Source: Clostridia bacterium
GTDB lineage: Bacteria; Bacillota; Clostridia; Christensenellales; CAG-138
Length of the DNA: 64,000 nucleotides
Reading direction: 5' to 3'
NCBI GenBank assembly: GCA_017407205.1
Contig: JAFQXA010000019.1
Coordinates: forward strand, 41,210-105,209
A program made the translations under genes and the position numbers. The notes beneath the pieces are model-generated. The model was not told the DNA's origin, made no database searches, and worked only from the letters and a program-made list of their open reading frames with translations. Below, piece after piece: positions 2,612 to 17,961 of the stretch; position 1 is the stretch's first letter, and each line of letters starts with the position of its first letter.

Positions 2612-4204
2612 GTGAGATTTAAGAAAACTGCGGCGGTGCTTTTGCTTGCCTTATTGCTTTTATCGTGCAATACAGCATTTGCACTCAACATCAAGGCAGA
2701 CAGCAATGCAAAAATAAGCCTCTTTTCACAACTCAACAATTATCATACGGTAGAGGTTGAGCCTGTTTCGTCAAGGGCTGAGGGCGAAAGCACGGTATAT
2801 GCTTACGATGTTTCGAATCTTGCAGGAGTAACATACCGCGTGTCAAAAGACGGTTTTATAACGCAAGCAGGGTATATTGACGCTGAAAATCCCATTGATA
2901 TTGAAGTTGTTTTTGATAAACAAGAAAATGCACAGAGCTGTGAAAACAATGTTGAAGTAATAAATAAAAGACTTGAAAACAGCGTGCTTTTAGGTGTAAA
3001 CAGTAAAAACTTCGTACACCTTCAGGTGGGTGAGGATTATTCATATGCTGCGTATCGAGCTGCATGGCAGATAGTAAACCGAGATACGGGAAACATTGTG
3101 ATAGAGCCTGACTTTAAACACCGCACCGTGTATGGTGAGGGTTGTGTTTTTGTAAAAGACTTGGGAAGCGTTGGCAATGCACGGGATAACCGCGTAACAA
3201 TAACAGGTCAAAAAGAGGGCTTGGCGATAATCGAAACGGTGTATGAAGCCCTTGATATTTCCGGTGACAGCCGATATACGGGGCGATACGGAGCGAGCGA
3301 TGAAAACCGAAGCGGAATTTTAGTCGTAAAGGTGGGGGGCGAAAGCGTTTCACTTGATTGGGGCGTAAAATGGGACAGCGAACGCGATACGCTTTATTTT
3401 GTGGGTGAGGGAGGAAGCCTGAAAATAAAACCCTCTGTTTCAGATGATGAGGTGGACAGCATATCCGTTTTGAATATAGCAAGCGGCAAAGAATTTGAAA
3501 GCGTTTTAAAAGACGGTGAAGCATACAGCGTGCCGATAGGAAACGGAAACAATGTCATAAGAGTGAATTTAAAAAGCGGCAGGGAGGATTATCTTGTTGT
3601 ACGCGGAAAAAGGGTGACGGTAAGCATTGAAAATACCGCAGGGAGAAAAAATGTAAAGGCAGGGGATACTGTCAATATCCACATAGACGGATTATATATG
3701 CCGATACCCAAGATGAGTGCCGTGTATAACCCTTACAGAAATAAAATTGTCTATACCGATACGAGCTTGACGGAGCATATGAGTAAAGCACATCAGTATG
3801 ATTTGTCAGCTTCAAACAGCTTGAGTGTTGCTGTGCCGAGCGATTTTGAGGGGGATGTGTATACATTAAGCAACGGTCGCATTTATACCGAGATGTATTG
3901 TGCGCAGGATATAACGCACAGGGATATAACGGACAGCGGTGTTGATACAAACGTGAAAGCTGTGCTCATAAAGGAATTTTATTCGGTTTTGCCGGATATA
4001 GAAATCAAGCTTTCGCAGGATGATGCTCTTTCGGGCGATGTAAATCTTGACGGCAAGGTAAATTCGCGTGATATTGCCGTTTTGCAAAGACAGGTCATGG
4101 GAAGCGAAGAAAAGAACGAAAGTGGCGATGTGAACCTTGACGGCAAGGTGAATTCAAGGGATATAGCATTTCTGCAAAAACAGATTTTAGGAAATGAGGT
4201 ATGA
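2612..4204 (+). CDS. secreted/surface protein of unknown function with C-terminal type I dockerin
   Basis: GTG start 9 nt after AAGGAGG. Signal peptide MRFKKTAAVLLLALLLLSC. The C-terminus has duplicated GDVNLDGKVNSRDIA(V/F)LQ(R/K)Q calcium-binding dockerin repeats. Confidence 0.8.
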   Translation: MRFKKTAAVLLLALLLLSCNTAFALNIKADSNAKISLFSQLNNYHTVEVEPVSSRAEGESTVYAYDVSNLAGVTYRVSKDGFITQAGYIDAENPIDIEVVFDKQENAQSCENNVEVINKRLENSVLLGVNSKNFVHLQVGEDYSYAAYRAAWQIVNRDTGNIVIEPDFKHRTVYGEGCVFVKDLGSVGNARDNRVTITGQKEGLAIIETVYEALDISGDSRYTGRYGASDENRSGILVVKVGGESVSLDWGVKWDSERDTLYFVGEGGSLKIKPSVSDDEVDSISVLNIASGKEFESVLKDGEAYSVPIGNGNNVIRVNLKSGREDYLVVRGKRVTVSIENTAGRKNVKAGDTVNIHIDGLYMPIPKMSAVYNPYRNKIVYTDTSLTEHMSKAHQYDLSASNSLSVAVPSDFEGDVYTLSNGRIYTEMYCAQDITHRDITDSGVDTNVKAVLIKEFYSVLPDIEIKLSQDDALSGDVNLDGKVNSRDIAVLQRQVMGSEEKNESGDVNLDGKVNSRDIAFLQKQILGNEV

Positions 4205-4208
4205 GAAA

Positions 4209-4850
4209 ATGAAAAGATGGACTGTTTTTATTTTAATATTTGCGATGATGTTTCAAATGGTGGGCTGCAAAGACGCTGAAACGGATATTGAGGCATTAAG
4301 CACTCCCGAAGCGACTTTACAAAACACACCCATTGCAACAGCGGAAGCTCAGGAGAGTTTGAACCCGTCCATATGCCCTGTGCAGACGGAAAAAGTAACG
4401 GCAAAACCGGAAGAAACCGACAACAAAAAGACAGAGCCTCCAAAGACGGCAGAGCCGAAGAACATATGTTCACTGAAAGTCGATTGCTCCGTTATTTTTG
4501 ACAATATGGACGAATTTGATGAGAAAAAGCTCATTTTACTGCCCGATGACGGAATAATATATTCAAGCTCAGAAGCAGAGTTTAAAGAAGGCGAAACGGT
4601 TTTTGATGTTTTGCTCAGAGAGCTTAAAAACAATAAAATACATTTTGATTATACGTCCTCAGCCATGGGAAACAATGTGTATATCGTAGGTATAAACAAT
4701 ATTTACGAGCTTGACTGCGGCGGTATGTCGGGCTGGGTCTACTCCGTAAACGATGAATATCCCGATTGCCCTTGCAGTCAGTATGTACTCTCAAAAGGCG
4801 ATAGAATAGAAGTCGTCTATACTTGTGATATGGGGGAGAACATGGGATAA
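4209..4850 (+). CDS. DUF4430 (transcobalamin beta-domain-like) lipoprotein, putative cobalamin-binding
   Basis: The track ORF is 4194..4850; the start at MKRWTVFILIFAMMFQMVGC (lipobox) is preferred. The C-terminal GETVFDVL..MSGWVYSVNDEYP..YVLSKGDRIEVVYTCD matches the DUF4430 pattern. It is co-transcribed behind the B12 riboswitch. Confidence 0.7.
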   Translation: MKRWTVFILIFAMMFQMVGCKDAETDIEALSTPEATLQNTPIATAEAQESLNPSICPVQTEKVTAKPEETDNKKTEPPKTAEPKNICSLKVDCSVIFDNMDEFDEKKLILLPDDGIIYSSSEAEFKEGETVFDVLLRELKNNKIHFDYTSSAMGNNVYIVGINNIYELDCGGMSGWVYSVNDEYPDCPCSQYVLSKGDRIEVVYTCDMGENMG

Positions 4851-5012
4851 AGTTCAGAAAAAGGGAAGAACAGCAAATAAATGTGTCAAAATCTGAATTT
4901 CAACAAAAAACATTAAATCTTTTCACGCGCTTGTCACAATATAATATTTGAACAGTTTGGAAAACTGTGTTATTATGGGAGCAGTGTTCTTAGAAATTTA
5001 AGGAGGCACATT

Positions 5013-7046
5013 TTGAAAAAATTAAAAACACCGTTAATTTACGCAGGAATAATATTGGTGATAGTTCTTTTGGTATCAAACCTTAATTTGGCAGGTTCAA
5101 ACCCTAAAGAGCCTACCGAGTATACCGATTTTCTTGAAATGGTACAGAAGGGTGAGGTAACCGTTCTTGAACTTACCGGCAATACACTTGTCGGTTTAAA
5201 GGGTGAAAAAACAGAAGCTCAGCTTAAAAAGTTCCCCAAGCTCTATGACTTCTTTGTATATGTTCCGTCGGAAGAGCGTTTTGCTACGGATATGGCTGTA
5301 ATTGCAGCGGAGCTTACAGGTAAGGATGTTGAGCATATCACAAGCTCGGATTATGCTTTCACTTATACATACAATCCGCCTCCCGAGGCTTCAATCTGGG
5401 AAATCATACTTCCGTATATCATAATATTCGGTGCATTTGGTGTATTCTATTTCTTCCTCATGCGTTCCCAGGGTGGCGGAAATAAGATGATGAACTTCGG
5501 CAAGAGCCGTGCCCGCACGCATATTGACCCGAAGAATAAAGTGACGTTTGACCAGGTAGCAGGTGCCGACGAGGAAAAAGAAGAGCTTAAAGAAGTTGTT
5601 GAATTCATGCGTTCACCCAAACGCTTTACAGACATGGGTGCAAGAATTCCCAAGGGCGTTTTGCTCGTAGGCCCTCCGGGCACAGGTAAAACATTGCTTG
5701 CAAAGGCTGTTGCAGGCGAAGCAAATGTTCCATTCTTCTCAATCTCAGGTTCTGACTTTGTTGAAATGTTCGTAGGTGTCGGTGCAAGCCGTGTAAGAGA
5801 CTTGTTCGGCACAGCCAAAAAGTGTGCTCCTGCCGTTGTATTTATTGACGAAATAGACGCTGTAGGTCGTCAGAGAGGTGCAGGCTTAGGTGGCGGTCAC
5901 GACGAGCGTGAGCAGACCTTGAATCAGCTCTTGGTTGAGATGGACGGCTTTGCAATAAACGAGGGAATAATCGTTATTGCAGCTACAAACCGCCCCGATA
6001 TATTGGACCCTGCGCTTTTGCGTCCCGGCAGATTTGACAGGCAGATAACGGTTTCATATCCTGATGTAAAGGGCAGAGAAGAAATTTTGAAGGTGCACGC
6101 AAAGGGCAAGCCGTTTGCAGATGATGTGGATTTATCGGTTCTTGCAAAGCGTACTTCGGGCTTCACGGGTGCAGACCTTGAGAATGTTCTCAACGAGGCT
6201 GCGATTTTGGCTGCAAGATTCAAGAAAAAGAAAATATCTATGGTAGAGCTTGAAGAAGCAGTAACGCGTACAGTAATAGGTCCTGAAAAGCACAGCCGTG
6301 TAGTAACGGAAGACGATAAGCGTATCACGGCTTACCACGAAGCAGGTCACGCAATAGTTGCACGCATGATGAAGCATTGCGATCCCGTTCACGAGGTTTC
6401 AATAATTCCGCGTGGCAATGCAGCAGGCTATACAATGACAATGAGCGATGACGATATGCGCCATATGTCAAGGGGCAAGCTCCTTGATATGATAGCAATG
6501 AGCATGGGCGGCAGAGTCGCAGAAGAAATAAAGCTTGACGATATCTGCACAGGCGCTATAGGCGATTTGAAGCACGCAACCGAGGTTGCACGCAGAATGG
6601 TTGTTGAGTTTGGCATGAGTGACGATATAGGTCATGTATTCTTAGGCGGAGATGCTGAAGTTTTCATCGGCAAGGATTGGGGACATCAGCGTAATTACTC
6701 GGAAGAAGTTGCTGCAAAGGTCGATTCTGAAATCAGAAGAATACTTGAAGAACAGCATGACAGAGCAAAGAAAGTCTTGCTTGAAAATGATGAAGCACTT
6801 GAACGTGTCGTAAAAGCACTTTTAGAGTACGAACGCATAACAGGCGAAGAATTTGAAAAGCTGTTTAGCGGTGAAGAAGTAGAGATAACTTCCTACGCGA
6901 AGAAGAAAGAACAGCTTCAGACGGCTGACCCTGAAGTTTTGAAGCAGGAAGAAGAGGAAGCCAGGAAAAAGGCTGACGAAGTAGAACGCATACTTCGTGA
7001 GGCTGAACAAATCATAGGCGAGGAAAAGAAAGACGGAGAAAAATAA
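5013..7046 (+). CDS. ftsH: ATP-dependent zinc metalloprotease FtsH
   Basis: N-terminal TM segments, Walker [12 protein letters not shown] second region of homology, and HEAGHA zinc site. TTG start after GGAGG. Confidence 0.95.
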
Positions 7047-13942: not shown

Positions 13943-14653
13943 ATGGCAACACCGCATATTAACGCAGAAAAGGGCGATTTCGCTAAAACCGTACTTATGC
14001 CCGGCGATCCGCTTCGTGCAAAGTTTATCGCAGAGAATTTTCTTGAGGATGCCCGTCTTGTAACAAGCGTAAGAAACATACTCGGCTACACAGGTACATA
14101 CAAGGGAAAGAAAGTATCCGTAATGGCAAGCGGAATGGGTATGCCGTCAATGGGCATATATTCATATGAGCTTTTCAACTGCTTTGATGTTGAAAACATA
14201 ATCCGCATCGGCACAGCAGGCTCGATAGCTCCCCAGGTTAAGCTCAAGAGCATTATAGTCGGCATGAGTGCAAGCTTTGACTCAAACTTTGGTGCACAGT
14301 TCAAAATGCCCGGCACATACTGCCCCACAGCAAGCTATAAGCTTTTAAAGGCTGCAACGGACACGGCAGAAGAACTTAATTTGAACATTCATGTCGGCAA
14401 CATCTTCTCAAGTGATTTGTTCTATGATGATGCTTCAACAACTCTCGATTGGCAGAAAATGGGAGTATTGGGCGTTGAAATGGAAAGTGCAGCCCTTTAT
14501 ATGAACGCAGCAAGAGCAGGCAAGAACGCACTTTGCATCTGCACAGTATCCGACGAATTGCCCACGGGCAACCGCTGCACAACAGAGGAGCGCCAGCAGA
14601 ACTTCACCGACATGATGAAGCTCGCCCTCGAAATGCTCGACAAGATAGACTGA
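13943..14653 (+). CDS. deoD: purine nucleoside phosphorylase DeoD-type
   Basis: MATPHINAEKGDFAKTVLMPGDPLRAKFIAENFL and GVEMESAALY are near-canonical DeoD sequences. Confidence 0.9.
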   Translation: MATPHINAEKGDFAKTVLMPGDPLRAKFIAENFLEDARLVTSVRNILGYTGTYKGKKVSVMASGMGMPSMGIYSYELFNCFDVENIIRIGTAGSIAPQVKLKSIIVGMSASFDSNFGAQFKMPGTYCPTASYKLLKAATDTAEELNLNIHVGNIFSSDLFYDDASTTLDWQKMGVLGVEMESAALYMNAARAGKNALCICTVSDELPTGNRCTTEERQQNFTDMMKLALEMLDKID

Positions 14654-14676
14654 TAACTAAAACGCAAAAGACACAA

Positions 14677-14706
14677 AAAACGCACGGATTTTTCCGTGCG
14701 TTTTTG
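14677..14706 (+). terminator. intrinsic terminator of deoD
   Basis: CGCACGGA (14681-14688) pairs with TCCGTGCG (14693-14700), followed by TTTTT. Confidence 0.85.
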
Positions 14707-14720
14707 CTTGTATTGAAAAT
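14697..14720. repeat. left copy of 24-nt imperfect direct repeat bracketing the accessory islet
   Basis: TGCGTTTTTGCTTGTATTGAAAAT compared with TGCGTTTTTGCTTACCTTGAAAAT at 17952-17975: 21 of 24 identical, including an exact 13-mer and an exact 8-mer in register. Confidence 0.6.
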
Positions 14721-14844
14721 TTTAGTCTGCGTTTTCCGGTTTCTGCTTGCTGAGTGGAAATATTGTGCCTTTAATATGTTGATTCAAAGGGATAGAACCT
14801 CACACTTCGATTATATAATTGACAAGGATAAGTGGGTTGTATAA

Positions 14845-14897: not shown

Positions 14898-14926
14898 TTG
14901 ACAATGTTATAATTAAACAGTATGAT
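14898..14926 (+). promoter_or_regulatory. sigma-A type promoter (TTGACA-17 nt-TATGAT) for the XRE/ImmA genes
   Basis: TTGACA at 14898-14903 and TATGAT at 14921-14926, 30 nt upstream of the ATG at 14957. Confidence 0.55.
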
Positions 14927-14956: not shown

Positions 14957-15301
14957 ATGTCGGTATTTAGTGAAAGGCTTACGGCATTGATGAAAGCAAA
15001 AGGATTTTCACAAAAAGAATTTGCAAAGCGAGCGAATGTTACTGAATCGGCAATGTCTTACTATGTAAAAGGAGTACGTACTCCGAGTGGAGAAGTACTC
15101 GCAAGAATTGCAAGGGCACTCGATACAACGGCCGATTATCTTTTAGGTAGCACGGATAGCATCGAAGTGCCTGAAGAACAAAAAGAACTTAAATATCTGC
15201 AAAGAAATCTCGGCAAATTGGATGATAAACAATTAAAAACAGCAGAAAAAATGTTGAAATTGATGTTTAATGACATTTTTGAGGATGATGACGAGGAGTG
15301 A
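14957..15301 (+). CDS. XRE-family helix-turn-helix transcriptional regulator (ImmR-like)
   Basis: LMKAKGFSQKEFAKRANVTESAMSYYVKGVRTPSGEVLARIARALDTTADYLLG is a classic HTH_3 domain. RBS AAAGGAGG. Confidence 0.85.
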   Translation: MSVFSERLTALMKAKGFSQKEFAKRANVTESAMSYYVKGVRTPSGEVLARIARALDTTADYLLGSTDSIEVPEEQKELKYLQRNLGKLDDKQLKTAEKMLKLMFNDIFEDDDEE

Positions 15302-15305
15302 ATTT

Positions 15306-15971
15306 GTGGCGAGTAGTGCAAAACCAAATTTTTCAGCAGCATATTCAAAAGCTAATGAGATTTTAGTAAAATCCCTTGTTATTTCCATGTTTCCTTTTTC
15401 TCCTATTGAACTTGTGAAAGAACAATCCGCCATAATGTGCCGTACTTACAAAAAGGCTCAAAAGTATGGCATTGACATTACTGCTTTTGGCAGTGATTCG
15501 GCTACTATTTTTGAATGTGACGGAAGGCAGATCATATTTTACGATGACAGCAAAGTGATGACTCATGTAAAATACTCAATTTTACACGAGCTGGGACATT
15601 CTTTAATCAATCACGATTTTTCTGTTAATGATAAAGAAACTTACGGTCAATACGAGGTTGAAACAAACTATTTTGCTGCTCAATTGCTTATGCCGGAACA
15701 GGTGCTGCGAGAGTTTGCGAAGCGCGGAGCCCGTATCACAAAAGAGTTTCTGATGGAACATTTTGAAGTGTCGGAAACGGCTGCAAAAAAACGCATTGAA
15801 ACGCTTGCGAAAACAACGGCTGAGTGGCGTTCCCGTCAAGAGAAAGAATTTGATGATATTATTCTCTGTAAGTTCTCTGCTTTTATCAATAGCACTTGTC
15901 CTTATAGCAATGACTACTTTGATTTTGAGGACGAATATGAACGTCAGCGTACAAGAGATTCTTGGTTTTAA
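15306..15971 (+). CDS. ImmA/IrrE-family zinc metallopeptidase
   Basis: HELGHSLINHD HExxH motif in the ImmA/IrrE context, directly downstream of the XRE gene. GTG at 15306 lies 7 nt after GAGGAG; the track ORF is 15270..15971. Confidence 0.75.
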   Translation: MASSAKPNFSAAYSKANEILVKSLVISMFPFSPIELVKEQSAIMCRTYKKAQKYGIDITAFGSDSATIFECDGRQIIFYDDSKVMTHVKYSILHELGHSLINHDFSVNDKETYGQYEVETNYFAAQLLMPEQVLREFAKRGARITKEFLMEHFEVSETAAKKRIETLAKTTAEWRSRQEKEFDDIILCKFSAFINSTCPYSNDYFDFEDEYERQRTRDSWF

Positions 15972-16000: not shown

Positions 16001-16075
16001 ATGTTTATGATTGTAGATAAAGATAAAGAAAAAAGCATTTCGCAAGTTGCGCCAACAACGAACGAAACGCTTTGA
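16001..16075 (+). CDS. possible 24-aa leader peptide (MFMIVDKDKEKSISQVAPTTNETL)
   Basis: ATG follows GGAGGTG, and the ORF is followed by a structured region. It is too short to support by composition. Confidence 0.2.
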   Translation: MFMIVDKDKEKSISQVAPTTNETL

Positions 16076-16192
16076 GTGTCGGATATGCTATGATATCCAA
16101 CCAGTGGACAGGTTCATTGTAGCATATCCTTCGATGGTTGTAAATTTAAAAATTTATGCTGTCTATCTAAAAGATTAAGGAGGATATAAAAA

Positions 16193-16885
16193 ATGACAGA
16201 TAAAAAAACAAATAATTTATTCTATGACGGTTTTAACTCGAAACTGATCGAAACCGCATTTTTCGAGGGCTTTCTTGAAATTCCTATCTTGGAAGCTCCG
16301 AAAGAAATTATTATACCTTCGGTTGCTGTACCGTTTTCAAAAAGAAAGGAGCTTACTGACCCTTCGAAAGAAATGCTCGTTTTCTACGAGAAAGATCCCG
16401 TGTTTAGAGATTTCGTAAGTATACCGCAGAATTACATTGATGAACTGAAAAATGTCAAAATAATCACTACGCCTGATTGCTCTCTTTATCGAGACATGCC
16501 ACTTTGGTCGCAAATAGCGAACATTGGTGTGAGTCGCTCTGTAGGATATTATTTGCAACAGCAAGGAAAATATGTGATTCCCAATGTTCGTTGGGGAGAT
16601 GAGCAGACATACACAAAAGGTCTGCTGGATTATCCACCTGCATTTTCGGGTATACCGAAAAACAGTATTGTTTCAATCGGTACTTATGGATGCAGTCAAA
16701 AGAAAGAGGACAAATATTTTCTTGAAGCAGGGCTTGAAGTCATGCTTCAAGAATTAGCACCGCAGGTCGTTGTAGTGTACGGTTCGTATAACCCTAAAAT
16801 CTTCGGCAAATACGAGCGTTATACGCAGTTCCATCATTTGCCTGACTGGACTACATATGCCCACAATGGGAAGAGGGTGGTCTGA
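16193..16885 (+). CDS. DUF4417 domain protein (function unknown)
   Basis: The pattern FYEKDPVFRDF..KIITTPDCSLYRDMPLWSQIANIGVSRSVGYYLQQQGKYVIPNVRWGDE..SIVSIGTYG matches my recollection of the DUF4417 family. RBS AAGGAGG. Confidence 0.55.
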   Translation: MTDKKTNNLFYDGFNSKLIETAFFEGFLEIPILEAPKEIIIPSVAVPFSKRKELTDPSKEMLVFYEKDPVFRDFVSIPQNYIDELKNVKIITTPDCSLYRDMPLWSQIANIGVSRSVGYYLQQQGKYVIPNVRWGDEQTYTKGLLDYPPAFSGIPKNSIVSIGTYGCSQKKEDKYFLEAGLEVMLQELAPQVVVVYGSYNPKIFGKYERYTQFHHLPDWTTYAHNGKRVV

Positions 16886-16886
16886 T

Positions 16887-17378
16887 ATGGGAACGAGCAA
16901 AAGCGGACGTTATCTTAATACCAGGGGCTCCGGCAGAAGTGTCAGCGATTTTGCTTTGGTACATTCAAGCGAAGGTGCATTCACCCGTAGTCAAACCCGT
17001 GTCAACGGGGAAGTGGTTATTAAACTTCGGCTTAATAATGGTGGGCACAGCCAGAAAGGGATGGATTTGCTCGATAAATACGGCATTAACTATAATATCG
17101 TTAAAACCTATCCAAATGGCGTTCGTATTGGCAATATACCTAACCATATGCAACGCTCAAAGCGTAGTGGGACAAGTCAAGCGTGGTTCCCTAAATCGTG
17201 GACAGAAAAAGACATTCGACGAGCAGGAGAACACGTTTCCGGTCTTAAAGGCAATCGCCGTATCGCAGACGGCAAAAAAATATATGGTGTCTACAAAGGT
17301 GTGCGAGTTGGCGTTATTCGTACTAATGGAAAAATCGCCACAGTTTTCCCGGACTCTAATCAAAATAAACGGAGGTGA
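16887..17378 (+). CDS. stand-alone EndoU-like / polymorphic-toxin-type nuclease domain protein (putative toxin)
   Basis: The motifs NNGGHSQKG .. SQAWFPKSWTEKDIRRAG .. GVRVGVIRTNGKIATVFPD resemble the bacterial EndoU toxin signature (GGH .. K[ST]xFPxxW[ST]xxxI .. I.T.[FY]P). No N-terminal trafficking domain is present. The ATG at 16887 is 1 nt after the DUF4417 stop; the track ORF starts at 16857. Confidence 0.45.
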   Translation: MGTSKSGRYLNTRGSGRSVSDFALVHSSEGAFTRSQTRVNGEVVIKLRLNNGGHSQKGMDLLDKYGINYNIVKTYPNGVRIGNIPNHMQRSKRSGTSQAWFPKSWTEKDIRRAGEHVSGLKGNRRIADGKKIYGVYKGVRVGVIRTNGKIATVFPDSNQNKRR

Positions 17379-17383
17379 TATTT

Positions 17384-17713
17384 ATGCAGTTTGTTGAGTT
17401 TCGTGAAATAATCAAAAAACGTACTTTTATCGATGATGAGTGGTATACTGAAATTGAAAAATGTTGGAAAGAAATGATAGAACTTTTTTCGTTGGATATA
17501 GATAAGACCATTCGTTTCCTTGATGTATGTACCGCTGACGAGTTCTCTTGGCTAAGTGAAATTATGGAGGATATAGCTAAAAGAACTCACAACAAGGAGT
17601 TTATTAGTGCATTGAAAAAAACGGCAGATAAATATCCCGAAGAAACACAACGGTACAATATTGTTGATTTTATAGAGTCAGCAGAATGTATTGTTGTTGA
17701 CGAGCAGGAATAG
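17384..17713 (+). CDS. small acidic protein, candidate cognate immunity protein
   Basis: ATG lies 6 nt after GGAGGTG, and that RBS overlaps the toxin stop codon. The protein is 109 aa and acidic, in the canonical immunity position. No motif was recognised. Confidence 0.4.
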   Translation: MQFVEFREIIKKRTFIDDEWYTEIEKCWKEMIELFSLDIDKTIRFLDVCTADEFSWLSEIMEDIAKRTHNKEFISALKKTADKYPEETQRYNIVDFIESAECIVVDEQE

Positions 17714-17715
17714 TG

Positions 17716-17922
17716 ATGAAATTTAACACGCTAAAAGAGGCCATTCAGTTTCGCATAATAGAAAGTGAAGAGAATTATTGGGTTGACTATAATGAGTACG
17801 TGAAAAGCATAGAAGAAATTGGATATGCTAAAATCGTATTGCTGAATAAAATTGTCGCAGTTTTCCCAGACTTTAATCAAAAACGTACATTTATCGATGC
17901 TGAAAGTAGAATAGAAGAATAA
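17716..17922 (+). CDS. 68-aa hypothetical protein with a chimeric C-terminus (toxin tail + immunity head scar)
   Basis: The start overlaps the upstream stop (TAGTGATG). Its last 21 codons repeat 17331-17365 joined to 17410-17438. Confidence 0.35.
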   Translation: MKFNTLKEAIQFRIIESEENYWVDYNEYVKSIEEIGYAKIVLLNKIVAVFPDFNQKRTFIDAESRIEE

Positions 17923-17926
17923 ATCA

Positions 17927-17961
17927 AACGCAGCAAGAATGAAATCTTTGCTGCGTTTTTG
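17927..17961. terminator. intrinsic terminator at right end of islet (hairpin also faces the convergent VanW gene)
   Basis: AACGCAGCAA (17928-17937) pairs with TTGCTGCGTT (17948-17957), followed by TTTT. Confidence 0.8.

Follow-up and report, generated by a model that had tools for sequence, protein, structure and literature searches.

A DUF4417 protein, a tagged EndoU-type toxin and an acidic partner: a candidate three-component polymorphic toxin–immunity system of gut and rumen Clostridia

What is the use of a small nuclease toxin that carries no conventional delivery domain, and why is its gene coupled to one for a protein of the DUF4417 family? The question is raised by four co-directional genes on contig JAFQXA010000019.1 of a Clostridia bacterium (assembly GCA_017407205.1), which were studied within a window of 64 kb, the whole stretch of DNA that was analyzed; all coordinates are positions of this window, whereas L001–L152 and P0032 are labels of collected loci and of a protein, respectively. 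An original prediction, made from the DNA letters, had read the genes as DUF4417, a stand-alone EndoU-like toxin and small acidic proteins, and had proposed an intracellular toxin–immunity or anti-phage module. The analysis reported here leans toward another answer, namely that the locus is a member of a three-component polymorphic toxin–immunity system, consisting of DUF4417, a toxin with a short N-terminal tag and a cognate immunity protein, under the control of an XRE/ImmA-type switch, with the toxin most likely being used after its release.

Both leading proteins belong to the families that had been named for them. In profile searches the first scores 142.6 bits against PF14386 (cut-off 28.9) and the second 56.4 bits against PF14436, EndoU_bacteria (cut-off 25.3); E-values and coordinates are compiled in Table 1. 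All coordinates and junctions proposed for the four coupled genes proved exact: the TGA of the DUF4417 gene is followed at 16887 by the ATG of the toxin gene, the toxin stop TGA (17376-17378) falls within GGAGGTGA, the ribosome-binding site of gene 3, whose ATG follows at 17384, and genes 3 and 4 meet at TAGTGATG. Apart from the EndoU domain, which starts at about residue 20, Pfam recognizes no domain in the toxin, in particular no LXG, WXG, Rhs, CdiA, MuF or PT-TG region, and neither a signal peptide nor a hydrophobic N-terminus is present; the absence of conventional delivery domains had been noted correctly. Divergent tagged EndoU toxins all have H26 and H54 and almost all have K92 and T152, while H87 is not conserved in one subclade. 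The protein is expected to be an EndoU-fold, metal-independent RNase that cuts RNA and leaves 2',3'-cyclic phosphate ends. Its relatives fill more than 1000 clusters at 90% identity, mostly from gut and rumen metagenomes, and nearly all of the 120 relatives listed are stand-alone proteins of 163–171 amino acids (aa). The exception, P0032 (L007:291-1148, 285 aa), is an in-frame fusion of an internally deleted DUF4417 (residues ~7–90 and 198–230) with a full EndoU toxin, which looks like a decay product and not like a functional architecture.

The coupling of DUF4417 to a toxin, which had been supposed to be undescribed, has no precedent in the literature searched, and neighborhood analysis found it to be recurrent. 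A comparison set of about 150 related loci was compiled, to which scans with a DUF4417 alignment contributed 79 metagenome and 15 viral loci; counts refer to 113 non-identical DUF4417 regions, whose open reading frames (ORFs) were walked. Seen from the toxin, DUF4417 is found in the same operon, directly upstream, in 40 of 44 genome loci; three of the exceptions are cut by a contig end (L010, L036 and L042), and in the last (L046) the EndoU gene is incomplete and lies where the contig ends, the 6 kb upstream being devoid of DUF4417. Seen from DUF4417, a tagged toxin is adjacent in at least 97 of the 113 distinct loci. The tagged protein starts within −17 to +7 nucleotides (nt) of the DUF4417 stop in 86 regions, and the order is toxin, one or more immunity genes, then DUF4417 in another 11. 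Two contigs end after DUF4417, and no tagged protein was found in the remaining 14, several of which are pattern or frameshift misses, with a few phage loci truly devoid of a tagged toxin. This linkage is far beyond chance. Production of DUF4417 and toxin as one protein by frameshift or readthrough is ruled out, because toxin starts occur in all three reading frames relative to DUF4417 and because the inverted gene order exists.

The constant part of the toxins is their N-terminus. A tag of 20 residues with the motif MG[TS][SG]x[SN]G[RN]Y.NT.GS is common to proteins with unrelated C-terminal domains, namely EndoU, Ntox50 (1e-27), Tox-REase-3 (4e-17), DUF6883 (1e-12) and ADPrib_exo_Tox (3e-20), and to at least three further types of toxin without a Pfam match. 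In all, the tag stands before nine or more unrelated domains. DUF6883 corresponds to BECR-Tox3 (bioRxiv 10.64898/2026.08.28.747851). Across 79 distinct tag sequences, G2 is present in all 79, G7 and G14 in 75, and Y9 and T12 in 69; removal of the initiator methionine leaves an N-terminal glycine, followed by a stretch rich in Gly, Ser and Thr. The conserved residues use all synonymous codons. Since these vary freely, the tag is conserved at the protein level, and its maintenance purely as a DNA recombination site is ruled out. A variant tag, MGGxxGGGGFG, goes with a phage clade of DUF4417 that is 36–39% identical to the protein of the window, and the toxin behind it is either Ntox50 or Tox-REase-3; because the variant is the same in front of both, the tag tracks DUF4417 and not the toxin. 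One of the toxins outside Pfam, referred to as type B, is a protein of about 171 aa with the motif NQSGHFRP and no known domain. In L041 (1-9120), an EndoU-type and a type B cassette, each with its own XRE and Peptidase_M78 genes, flank a single MmeI-family restriction–modification (RM) gene; the second cassette consists of XRE, M78, DUF4417, a 171-aa protein without Pfam match and a small acidic ORF, and the 171-aa protein starts with MGSGISGNYSGTSGS, resembling MGTSKSGRYLNTRGSG of the window toxin. A tandem duplication of the XRE-M78-DUF4417-EndoU unit was also observed on a single contig (L070:278-2947 and 3744-6150).

The immunity gene changes along with the toxin: Imm7 (2e-40) follows Tox-REase-3, DUF4926 (5e-14) follows DUF6883, and the family of gene 3 follows EndoU, with starts and stops of toxin and immunity genes overlapping or standing close. 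A homologue of gene 3 lies directly 3' of the toxin in essentially every EndoU-type locus, and its product most likely blocks the toxin by direct binding. Mean pairwise identities over 38 distinct EndoU-type triples amount to 67% for DUF4417, 71% for the toxin and 38% for the immunity protein. For gene 3 no Pfam family, Imm families included, and no recognizable DNA-binding domain was found; it matches phrog_19054 at 6e-8. Nucleotide homology of the related loci to the window begins between about 14810 and 14897, runs to 17353–17364 at the end of the toxin gene, and mostly stops there owing to exchange of the immunity gene. Two immunity paralogues are present in several loci and tandem arrays of three to four in L123 and L124, and 3' fragments of EndoU genes lie downstream in L001 and L034. 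Relics of this kind also account for gene 4. The original prediction had spoken of small acidic proteins in the plural, which holds for gene 3, read here as the immunity gene, and fails for gene 4, which is a mosaic and not an intact gene. Its residues 1–23 and 24–36 correspond to the two ends, N- and C-terminal respectively, of an immunity subtype of 126 aa (seen in L058) whose middle part is lost here, its positions 17848-17882 agree with the EndoU 3' end (17331-17365) in 29 of 35 nucleotides, and its final piece resembles the 5' end of gene 3. The reading of gene 4 as a second immunity protein was considered and rejected, as the ORF is left over from earlier cassettes by deletion and fusion.

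The cassettes are common in gut and rumen Clostridia and occupy different chromosomal sites: L001 lies in a Type I RM/mobile island, L003 behind a Fic gene, and L148–L152 beside an MmeI-type enzyme, where a block of MmeI, Fic, DUF4417 and EndoU recurs upstream of infC. A few copies are found among phage genes. One phage contig (L057) shows the order portal, DUF4417, Tox-REase-3, Imm7, scaffold and major head protein; another (L141) runs from integrase and terS to a small tagged ORF, DUF4417, one further gene and portal; in L056, DUF4417 stands beside an internal virion protein. Gly-rich tagged ORFs (MGGRG...) were seen 5' of DUF4417 in L140 (1222-3106) and L141 (4603-5504), the latter being only about 50 residues long and without a recognizable toxin domain.

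It is known from polymorphic toxins in general that swapping behind a tag, a shared toxin repertoire, immunity arrays and relics are expected for toxins that arrive from outside the cell, and that such features are untypical of classical toxin–antitoxin (TA) modules. On comparison of the collected sequences, the hallmarks of polymorphic toxin systems are present here: a constant N-terminal part, exchangeable toxins, covarying downstream immunity, and relics and polyimmunity arrays. Because these defining features are found, save a recognizable trafficking route, the locus can be rationalized as a three-component variant of such systems, in which DUF4417 is the constant partner of the toxin family; the linkage would then provide the first functional context for DUF4417. 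With regard to type II TA modules, the locus differs in having three conserved genes, an immunity protein in which Pfam recognizes no DNA-binding domain, a separate XRE/M78 or Fic regulator, and tandem immunity arrays. The earlier argument, by which the toxin could not be an exported effector of the conventional sort and the module was consequently intracellular, thus appears incomplete or probably wrong in view of the comparative data.

A working model can be outlined along these lines. The XRE/ImmA pair would silence the operon until a stress signal arrives, for instance DNA damage or the induction of a mobile element. DUF4417, an enzyme-like protein of the TIM-barrel type, may recognize or process the tag, and could thereby load, deliver or activate any toxin that carries the tag, as a factor common to all of them. 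The toxin would then be used against other genomes, whether of competing bacteria or of phages, incoming or resident, and most likely once it has left the producer, which together with its kin would be shielded by the immunity protein. Release together with phage particles is plausible because phage-borne copies sit in the terminase–portal–scaffold module, the slot of MuF toxins; a colicin-like release on lysis is plausible as well.

Several observations weigh against this model. A trafficking domain or linked delivery apparatus, otherwise a mark of polymorphic toxin systems, was not found, and the packaging-module context is confined to a few viral contigs. Clustering of 452 flanking ORFs and Pfam searches revealed no recurrent secretion system, signal peptide, receptor-binding domain or lysis gene at the cassettes; most copies, that of the window included, form small islets in the chromosome, away from any phage structural genes; and RM systems and other defense genes often adjoin them, which fits an intracellular defense function equally well. 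Structure prediction and Foldseek searches, by which the original prediction had hoped to be checked, gave a divided result. The AlphaFold2 model of DUF4417 is good, with a predicted local distance difference test score (pLDDT) of 86, and represents a (beta/alpha)7-8 barrel-like fold of seven to eight beta/alpha units, but no confident functional fold match to it was obtained: Foldseek against the PDB returned generic TIM barrels (best E 1.7e-3, template modeling (TM) scores 0.3–0.43). The toxin model, computed from a shallow alignment, reached a pLDDT of 58.6, so the fold assignment of the toxin rests on the Pfam profile and the conserved residues; its Foldseek matches in the PDB (E > 0.1) were discarded as meaningless. 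Sequence and profile searches against PDB chains gave nothing significant for either protein.

Immunity arrays, toxin repertoire and phage contexts favor action of the toxin after release, whereas the lack of export machinery and the neighbors from defense islands favor action inside the cell. An intracellular anti-phage (abortive infection) or addiction module, in which XRE/ImmA would sense infection or DNA damage, the derepressed EndoU RNase would arrest the cell, the immunity protein would be the antitoxin and DUF4417 a sensor or regulator of toxin release, is possible, though we hold it to be the less probable answer. CapH and CapP are known to gate operons of the cyclic-oligonucleotide-based anti-phage signaling system (CBASS) and other defense operons. 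The regulators of the window match this pair, cassettes lie in or beside Type I and MmeI-type RM, ABC-3C and AbiEii-like genes, they have neither an export signal nor a linked secretion system, and they move among unrelated chromosomal sites as defense islets do. Yet PADLOC returned nothing significant for DUF4417 or the toxin and only marginal matches (E ~1e-3) for the immunity protein; arrays of three to four immunity paralogues and orphan relics are hard to reconcile with a self-contained TA module; toxin and immunity protein share one repressed promoter, so that induction would yield both together; effector swapping with cognate Imm7 or DUF4926 is the signature of polymorphic toxins; and copies carried by phages are found among virion genes. 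That the locus is nothing but a decaying remnant of a prophage or integrative and conjugative element, a moron without current function in which DUF4417 and toxin are merely co-inherited, is very improbable. In the islet of the window, integrase and structural genes are missing and the last ORF is a pseudogene of mosaic make-up, and truncated or frameshifted copies exist (L007, L013, L021, L045, L050 and L062); against such decay, none of the three core genes is broken in the window, and the species has them intact in at least six more contigs; clear purifying selection acts on DUF4417 and the toxin (63–93% identity, hundreds of clusters); and their linkage persists where genes are reordered and where regulators and toxin domains have been swapped.

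Two further proposals concern the role of DUF4417 itself. It is an improbable idea that the protein is a nucleic-acid-modifying TIM barrel, catalyzing base exchange or glycosyl transfer like DpdA/TGT with a ParB-like partner, which would mark self RNA or DNA, or create or mask the toxin substrate, so that the trio would resemble modification-dependent restriction. Conserved residues of DUF4417 (D95, S97, Y99, R133, W134, G135, D136 and E137) lie at the C-terminal strand ends of the modeled barrel, a placement that looks enzyme-like, and the Asp, Arg and Glu among them would suit this proposal. Furthermore, in a library of viral structures the best matches after true DUF4417 homologues are phage queuine tRNA-ribosyltransferase-like proteins (E 3e-3 to 5e-2, query-normalized TM scores 0.38–0.47), a weak resemblance to DpdA/TGT to be taken as a lead only. 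In the PDB, by contrast, generic aldolase and epimerase TIM barrels beat TGT, which ranks 48th with E 0.17; sequence similarity to another family or to a PDB chain was not found; the RWGDE motif is lost in ParB-type members of streptococcal phages; and a modifying enzyme would leave unexplained why one tag and one partner serve RNases, a DNase and an ADP-ribosyltransferase. The other proposal extends the polymorphic toxin model, and we consider it doubtful: DUF4417 and the N-terminal Gly tag would constitute a general cargo-loading system, in which DUF4417 binds the tagged toxin or couples it enzymatically via its free N-terminal glycine and brings it into phage capsids or other released particles. 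Chromosomal islets like that of the window, turned on by the ImmA-type protease at the same time as resident prophages, would then load their toxins onto phage particles in trans, and immunity arrays would be the host answer to injected toxins. Such loading would be comparable to the T4 capsid-targeting sequence or MuF, the difference being that carrier and cargo are separate proteins.

DUF4417 is a large family, with 2127 clusters at 50% identity reaching E <= 1e-3, of which 75 reach E <= 1e-30. NCBIfam holds nothing for DUF4417, the toxin or the immunity protein, and DUF4417 has no Pfam match to MuF, nor is any of the 50 proteins that match it best in the library of viral structures a MuF protein. 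A literature search found no paper linking DUF4417 to toxins; the only functional remark is that ParB-CTPase domains of phages are often fused to it, alongside DNA methyltransferases (bioRxiv 10.1101/2025.10.10.680097), an association that would be in keeping with the modification proposal above. Distant homologues were observed as gene 1 at the left genome end in about 385 records of L5-like mycobacteriophages (e.g., L5, Z18946.1, 507-992), and, fused to ParB or solo, just 5' of terS in streptococcal prophages. The copy of phage A25 (NC_028697.1, 10704-11387) is without the RWGDE motif. None of the L5-like and streptococcal phage copies has a tagged toxin alongside.

The regulatory part of the operon conforms to what had been predicted, an XRE/ImmA pair directly upstream (Table 1). 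The XRE protein also resembles the RstR-like model of NCBIfam (2.5e-15), a score under that model's cut-off. The start of the M78 gene is uncertain, public gene calls (L146) beginning at 15285; the HELGH motif is present in its translation. Among the clustered flanking ORFs, the strongly recurrent neighbors are XRE plus M78, Fic, KptA and scattered defense and mobility genes. The XRE helix-turn-helix (HTH) and Peptidase_M78 neighbors comprise at least seven mutually divergent M78 clusters, which together account for more than 40 loci; a Fic_N-Fic protein with a winged HTH (wHTH) is the neighbor in nine loci; and the scattered genes include ABC-3C, AbiEii-like AAA_21, resolvases and RM systems. 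A gene for a Tpt1/KptA RNA 2'-phosphotransferase (PF01885, 6e-44; L107:2514-3128, minus strand, and five similar loci) was observed beside type B toxin cassettes. Its recurrence hints at RNA ends as the target of the type B toxin, or at KptA as a second, enzymatic immunity factor.

Between M78 and DUF4417 lies a strongly conserved, non-coding leader, whose inverted-repeat arms are GGATATGCTATGA (16081-16093) and TCATTGTAGCATATCC (16114-16129), with a spacer of about 20–25 nt across loci and of 20 nt in the window. It is kept in 13 loci, whether these have XRE/M78, Fic or no regulator; two of the 13 repeat pairs show compensatory changes, several G-U changes occur besides, and a TTGTCA-like box follows the inverted repeat. 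The leader could be an RNA element or a DNA operator. A scan with Rfam gave no family for it, the sole sub-threshold match with E < 0.01 being the Brucella small RNA BSnc120 at 14653-14723 (27.6 bits, gathering threshold 114); this candidate was rejected, as it coincides with the terminator hairpin of deoD and is most likely due to chance. An ORF of 22 codons, MIVDKDKEKSISQVAPTTNETL, was observed at 16008-16076 after a strong ribosome-binding site, GGAGGTGATG, in overlap with the first hairpin of the leader. Loci of the XRE/M78 type have kept its binding site and start, though not the peptide sequence; the ORF may represent a leader peptide or an attenuator.

Table 1. Coordinates of the DUF4417–toxin cassette, its regulators and its boundaries
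Feature	Position	Strand	Description
Bidirectional hairpin terminator 3' of deoD	14676-14705		13-bp stem then T-run, on both strands; upstream boundary of the islet
Sigma-70-like promoter, putatively of the regulator genes	14898-14926	+	TTGACA-17-TATGAT; 11 of 12 consensus matches; 30 nt before XRE start
XRE-family HTH repressor, ImmR/CapH-like	14957-15301	+	114 aa; Pfam HTH_3 3e-13; PADLOC capH 2.1e-15
ImmA/IrrE-type Peptidase_M78 metalloprotease	15270-15971	+	228–233 aa; PF06114 1.4e-16; PADLOC capP 1.1e-15
Conserved leader 5' of DUF4417	16033-16129	+	small hairpin and 13-bp inverted repeat
DUF4417 gene	16193-16885	+	230 aa; stop TGA 16883-16885; PF14386 1.2e-41
EndoU-type toxin gene	16887-17378	+	163 aa; pI 11.0; PF14436 5.2e-15
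N-terminal tag of the toxin, residues 1–20	16887-16946	+	MGTSKSGRYLNTRGSGRSVS
Gene 3, candidate cognate immunity	17384-17713	+	109 aa; pI 4.5; fast-diverging family
Gene 4, mosaic relic ORF	17716-17922	+	68 aa; three-part patchwork
Hairpin terminator at operon end	17926-17958		−16.1 kcal/mol; z = −3.8 vs shuffles; followed by UUUUU; shared with convergent VanW-like gene

The islet is flanked by housekeeping genes, rmuC and deoD on one side and a VanW-like gene on the other. By its match to the consensus, the promoter listed in Table 1 probably drives the regulator genes. There is no prophage in the 64-kb window. The islet had been described as AT-rich, which is true of the regulator genes and its 3' end, where the fraction of G+C is 0.33–0.40 as against 0.43–0.50 in the flanks, and does not apply to the 3' end of DUF4417 and the EndoU gene (0.45–0.46). 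All six contigs with the exact DeoD sequence of the window carry the islet, and no islet-free allele was found among the contigs matched in this way.

Polymorphic toxin systems are classed by how their toxins are trafficked, through type V, type VI and type VII secretion systems (T5SS, T6SS and T7SS), MuF, the S8 peptidase polymorphic toxin system (S8-PTS) and others, and the weapons that gut and rumen Clostridia use among themselves, or that pass between them and their phages, are poorly known. If the proposed model is true, a new class would be defined by DUF4417 and the 20-residue tag, and a simple system of three genes would be at hand in which to study the way small cytoplasmic toxins that lack secretion signals get to their targets. 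The short and portable tag may target arbitrary cargo. In addition, the comparison flags three or more candidates for new toxin domains as well as several immunity families that are new.

Among known systems, the MuF polymorphic toxins of temperate phages come to mind (Zhang et al. 2012, PMC3482391; Jamet et al. 2017, PMC5576092). Ntox50 and EndoU are found among MuF toxins (PMC5576092), and so is DUF6883 (bioRxiv 10.64898/2026.08.28.747851). MuF systems and the cassettes share a repertoire of EndoU_bacteria, Ntox50, DUF6883/PBECR and ADP-ribosyltransferases, also shared with T7SS toxins, with a small immunity ORF after each, and gut Firmicutes have both in abundance. The place of DUF4417 in phage contigs is the muf slot beside portal and terminase (L057 and L141, with L056 near an internal virion protein), which is not so in the window or in most chromosomal loci. 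The cassettes differ from MuF systems in having no MuF domain, in a toxin that is a separate small protein with a 20-residue tag instead of a C-terminal fusion, and in the setting of most DUF4417 copies, which are chromosomal islets controlled by XRE/M78 and away from phage genes. The three-component S8-PTS of Gram-positive bacteria (Li, Tan and Zhang 2022, PMC9424270) likewise links three genes, one for a conserved accessory enzyme, one for a polymorphic toxin whose BECR or restriction endonuclease (REase) domains can be exchanged, and one for an immunity protein; here, the accessory protein is DUF4417 and not an S8 peptidase, and the toxins have no signal peptide or BetaH receptor-binding domain, only the short Gly-rich tag. 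Neither MuF systems nor S8-PTS contain DUF4417 or the tag.

The EndoU toxins of contact-dependent inhibition (CDI), T7SS and Rhs systems (PF14436) agree with the toxin of the window in profile score, in the conserved His, His and Thr, and in the pairing of a basic toxin with an acidic immunity gene directly 3'; they differ from it in that the cassette toxin is a stand-alone protein of 163 aa without a delivery region and its immunity protein stands outside the Imm families of Pfam. In common with CapH/CapP and ImmR/ImmA operons, known from CBASS and other defense systems, ICEBs1 and prophages, an HTH repressor and an M78 protease lie directly upstream in the same direction, except that the cargo is not a recognized defense system (no significant PADLOC match) and that the cassettes are also found behind Fic-wHTH or without a regulator. 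In comparison with the SOS-induced colicin and pyocin operons, the cassette toxin lacks a receptor-binding or translocation domain, there is no lysis gene, and a DUF4417 partner is present instead; what unites them is an operon inducible by stress, with induction by DNA damage and a tight hold of the immunity protein on its toxin being presumed here, and a nuclease toxin with an acidic immunity protein that diversify as pairs.

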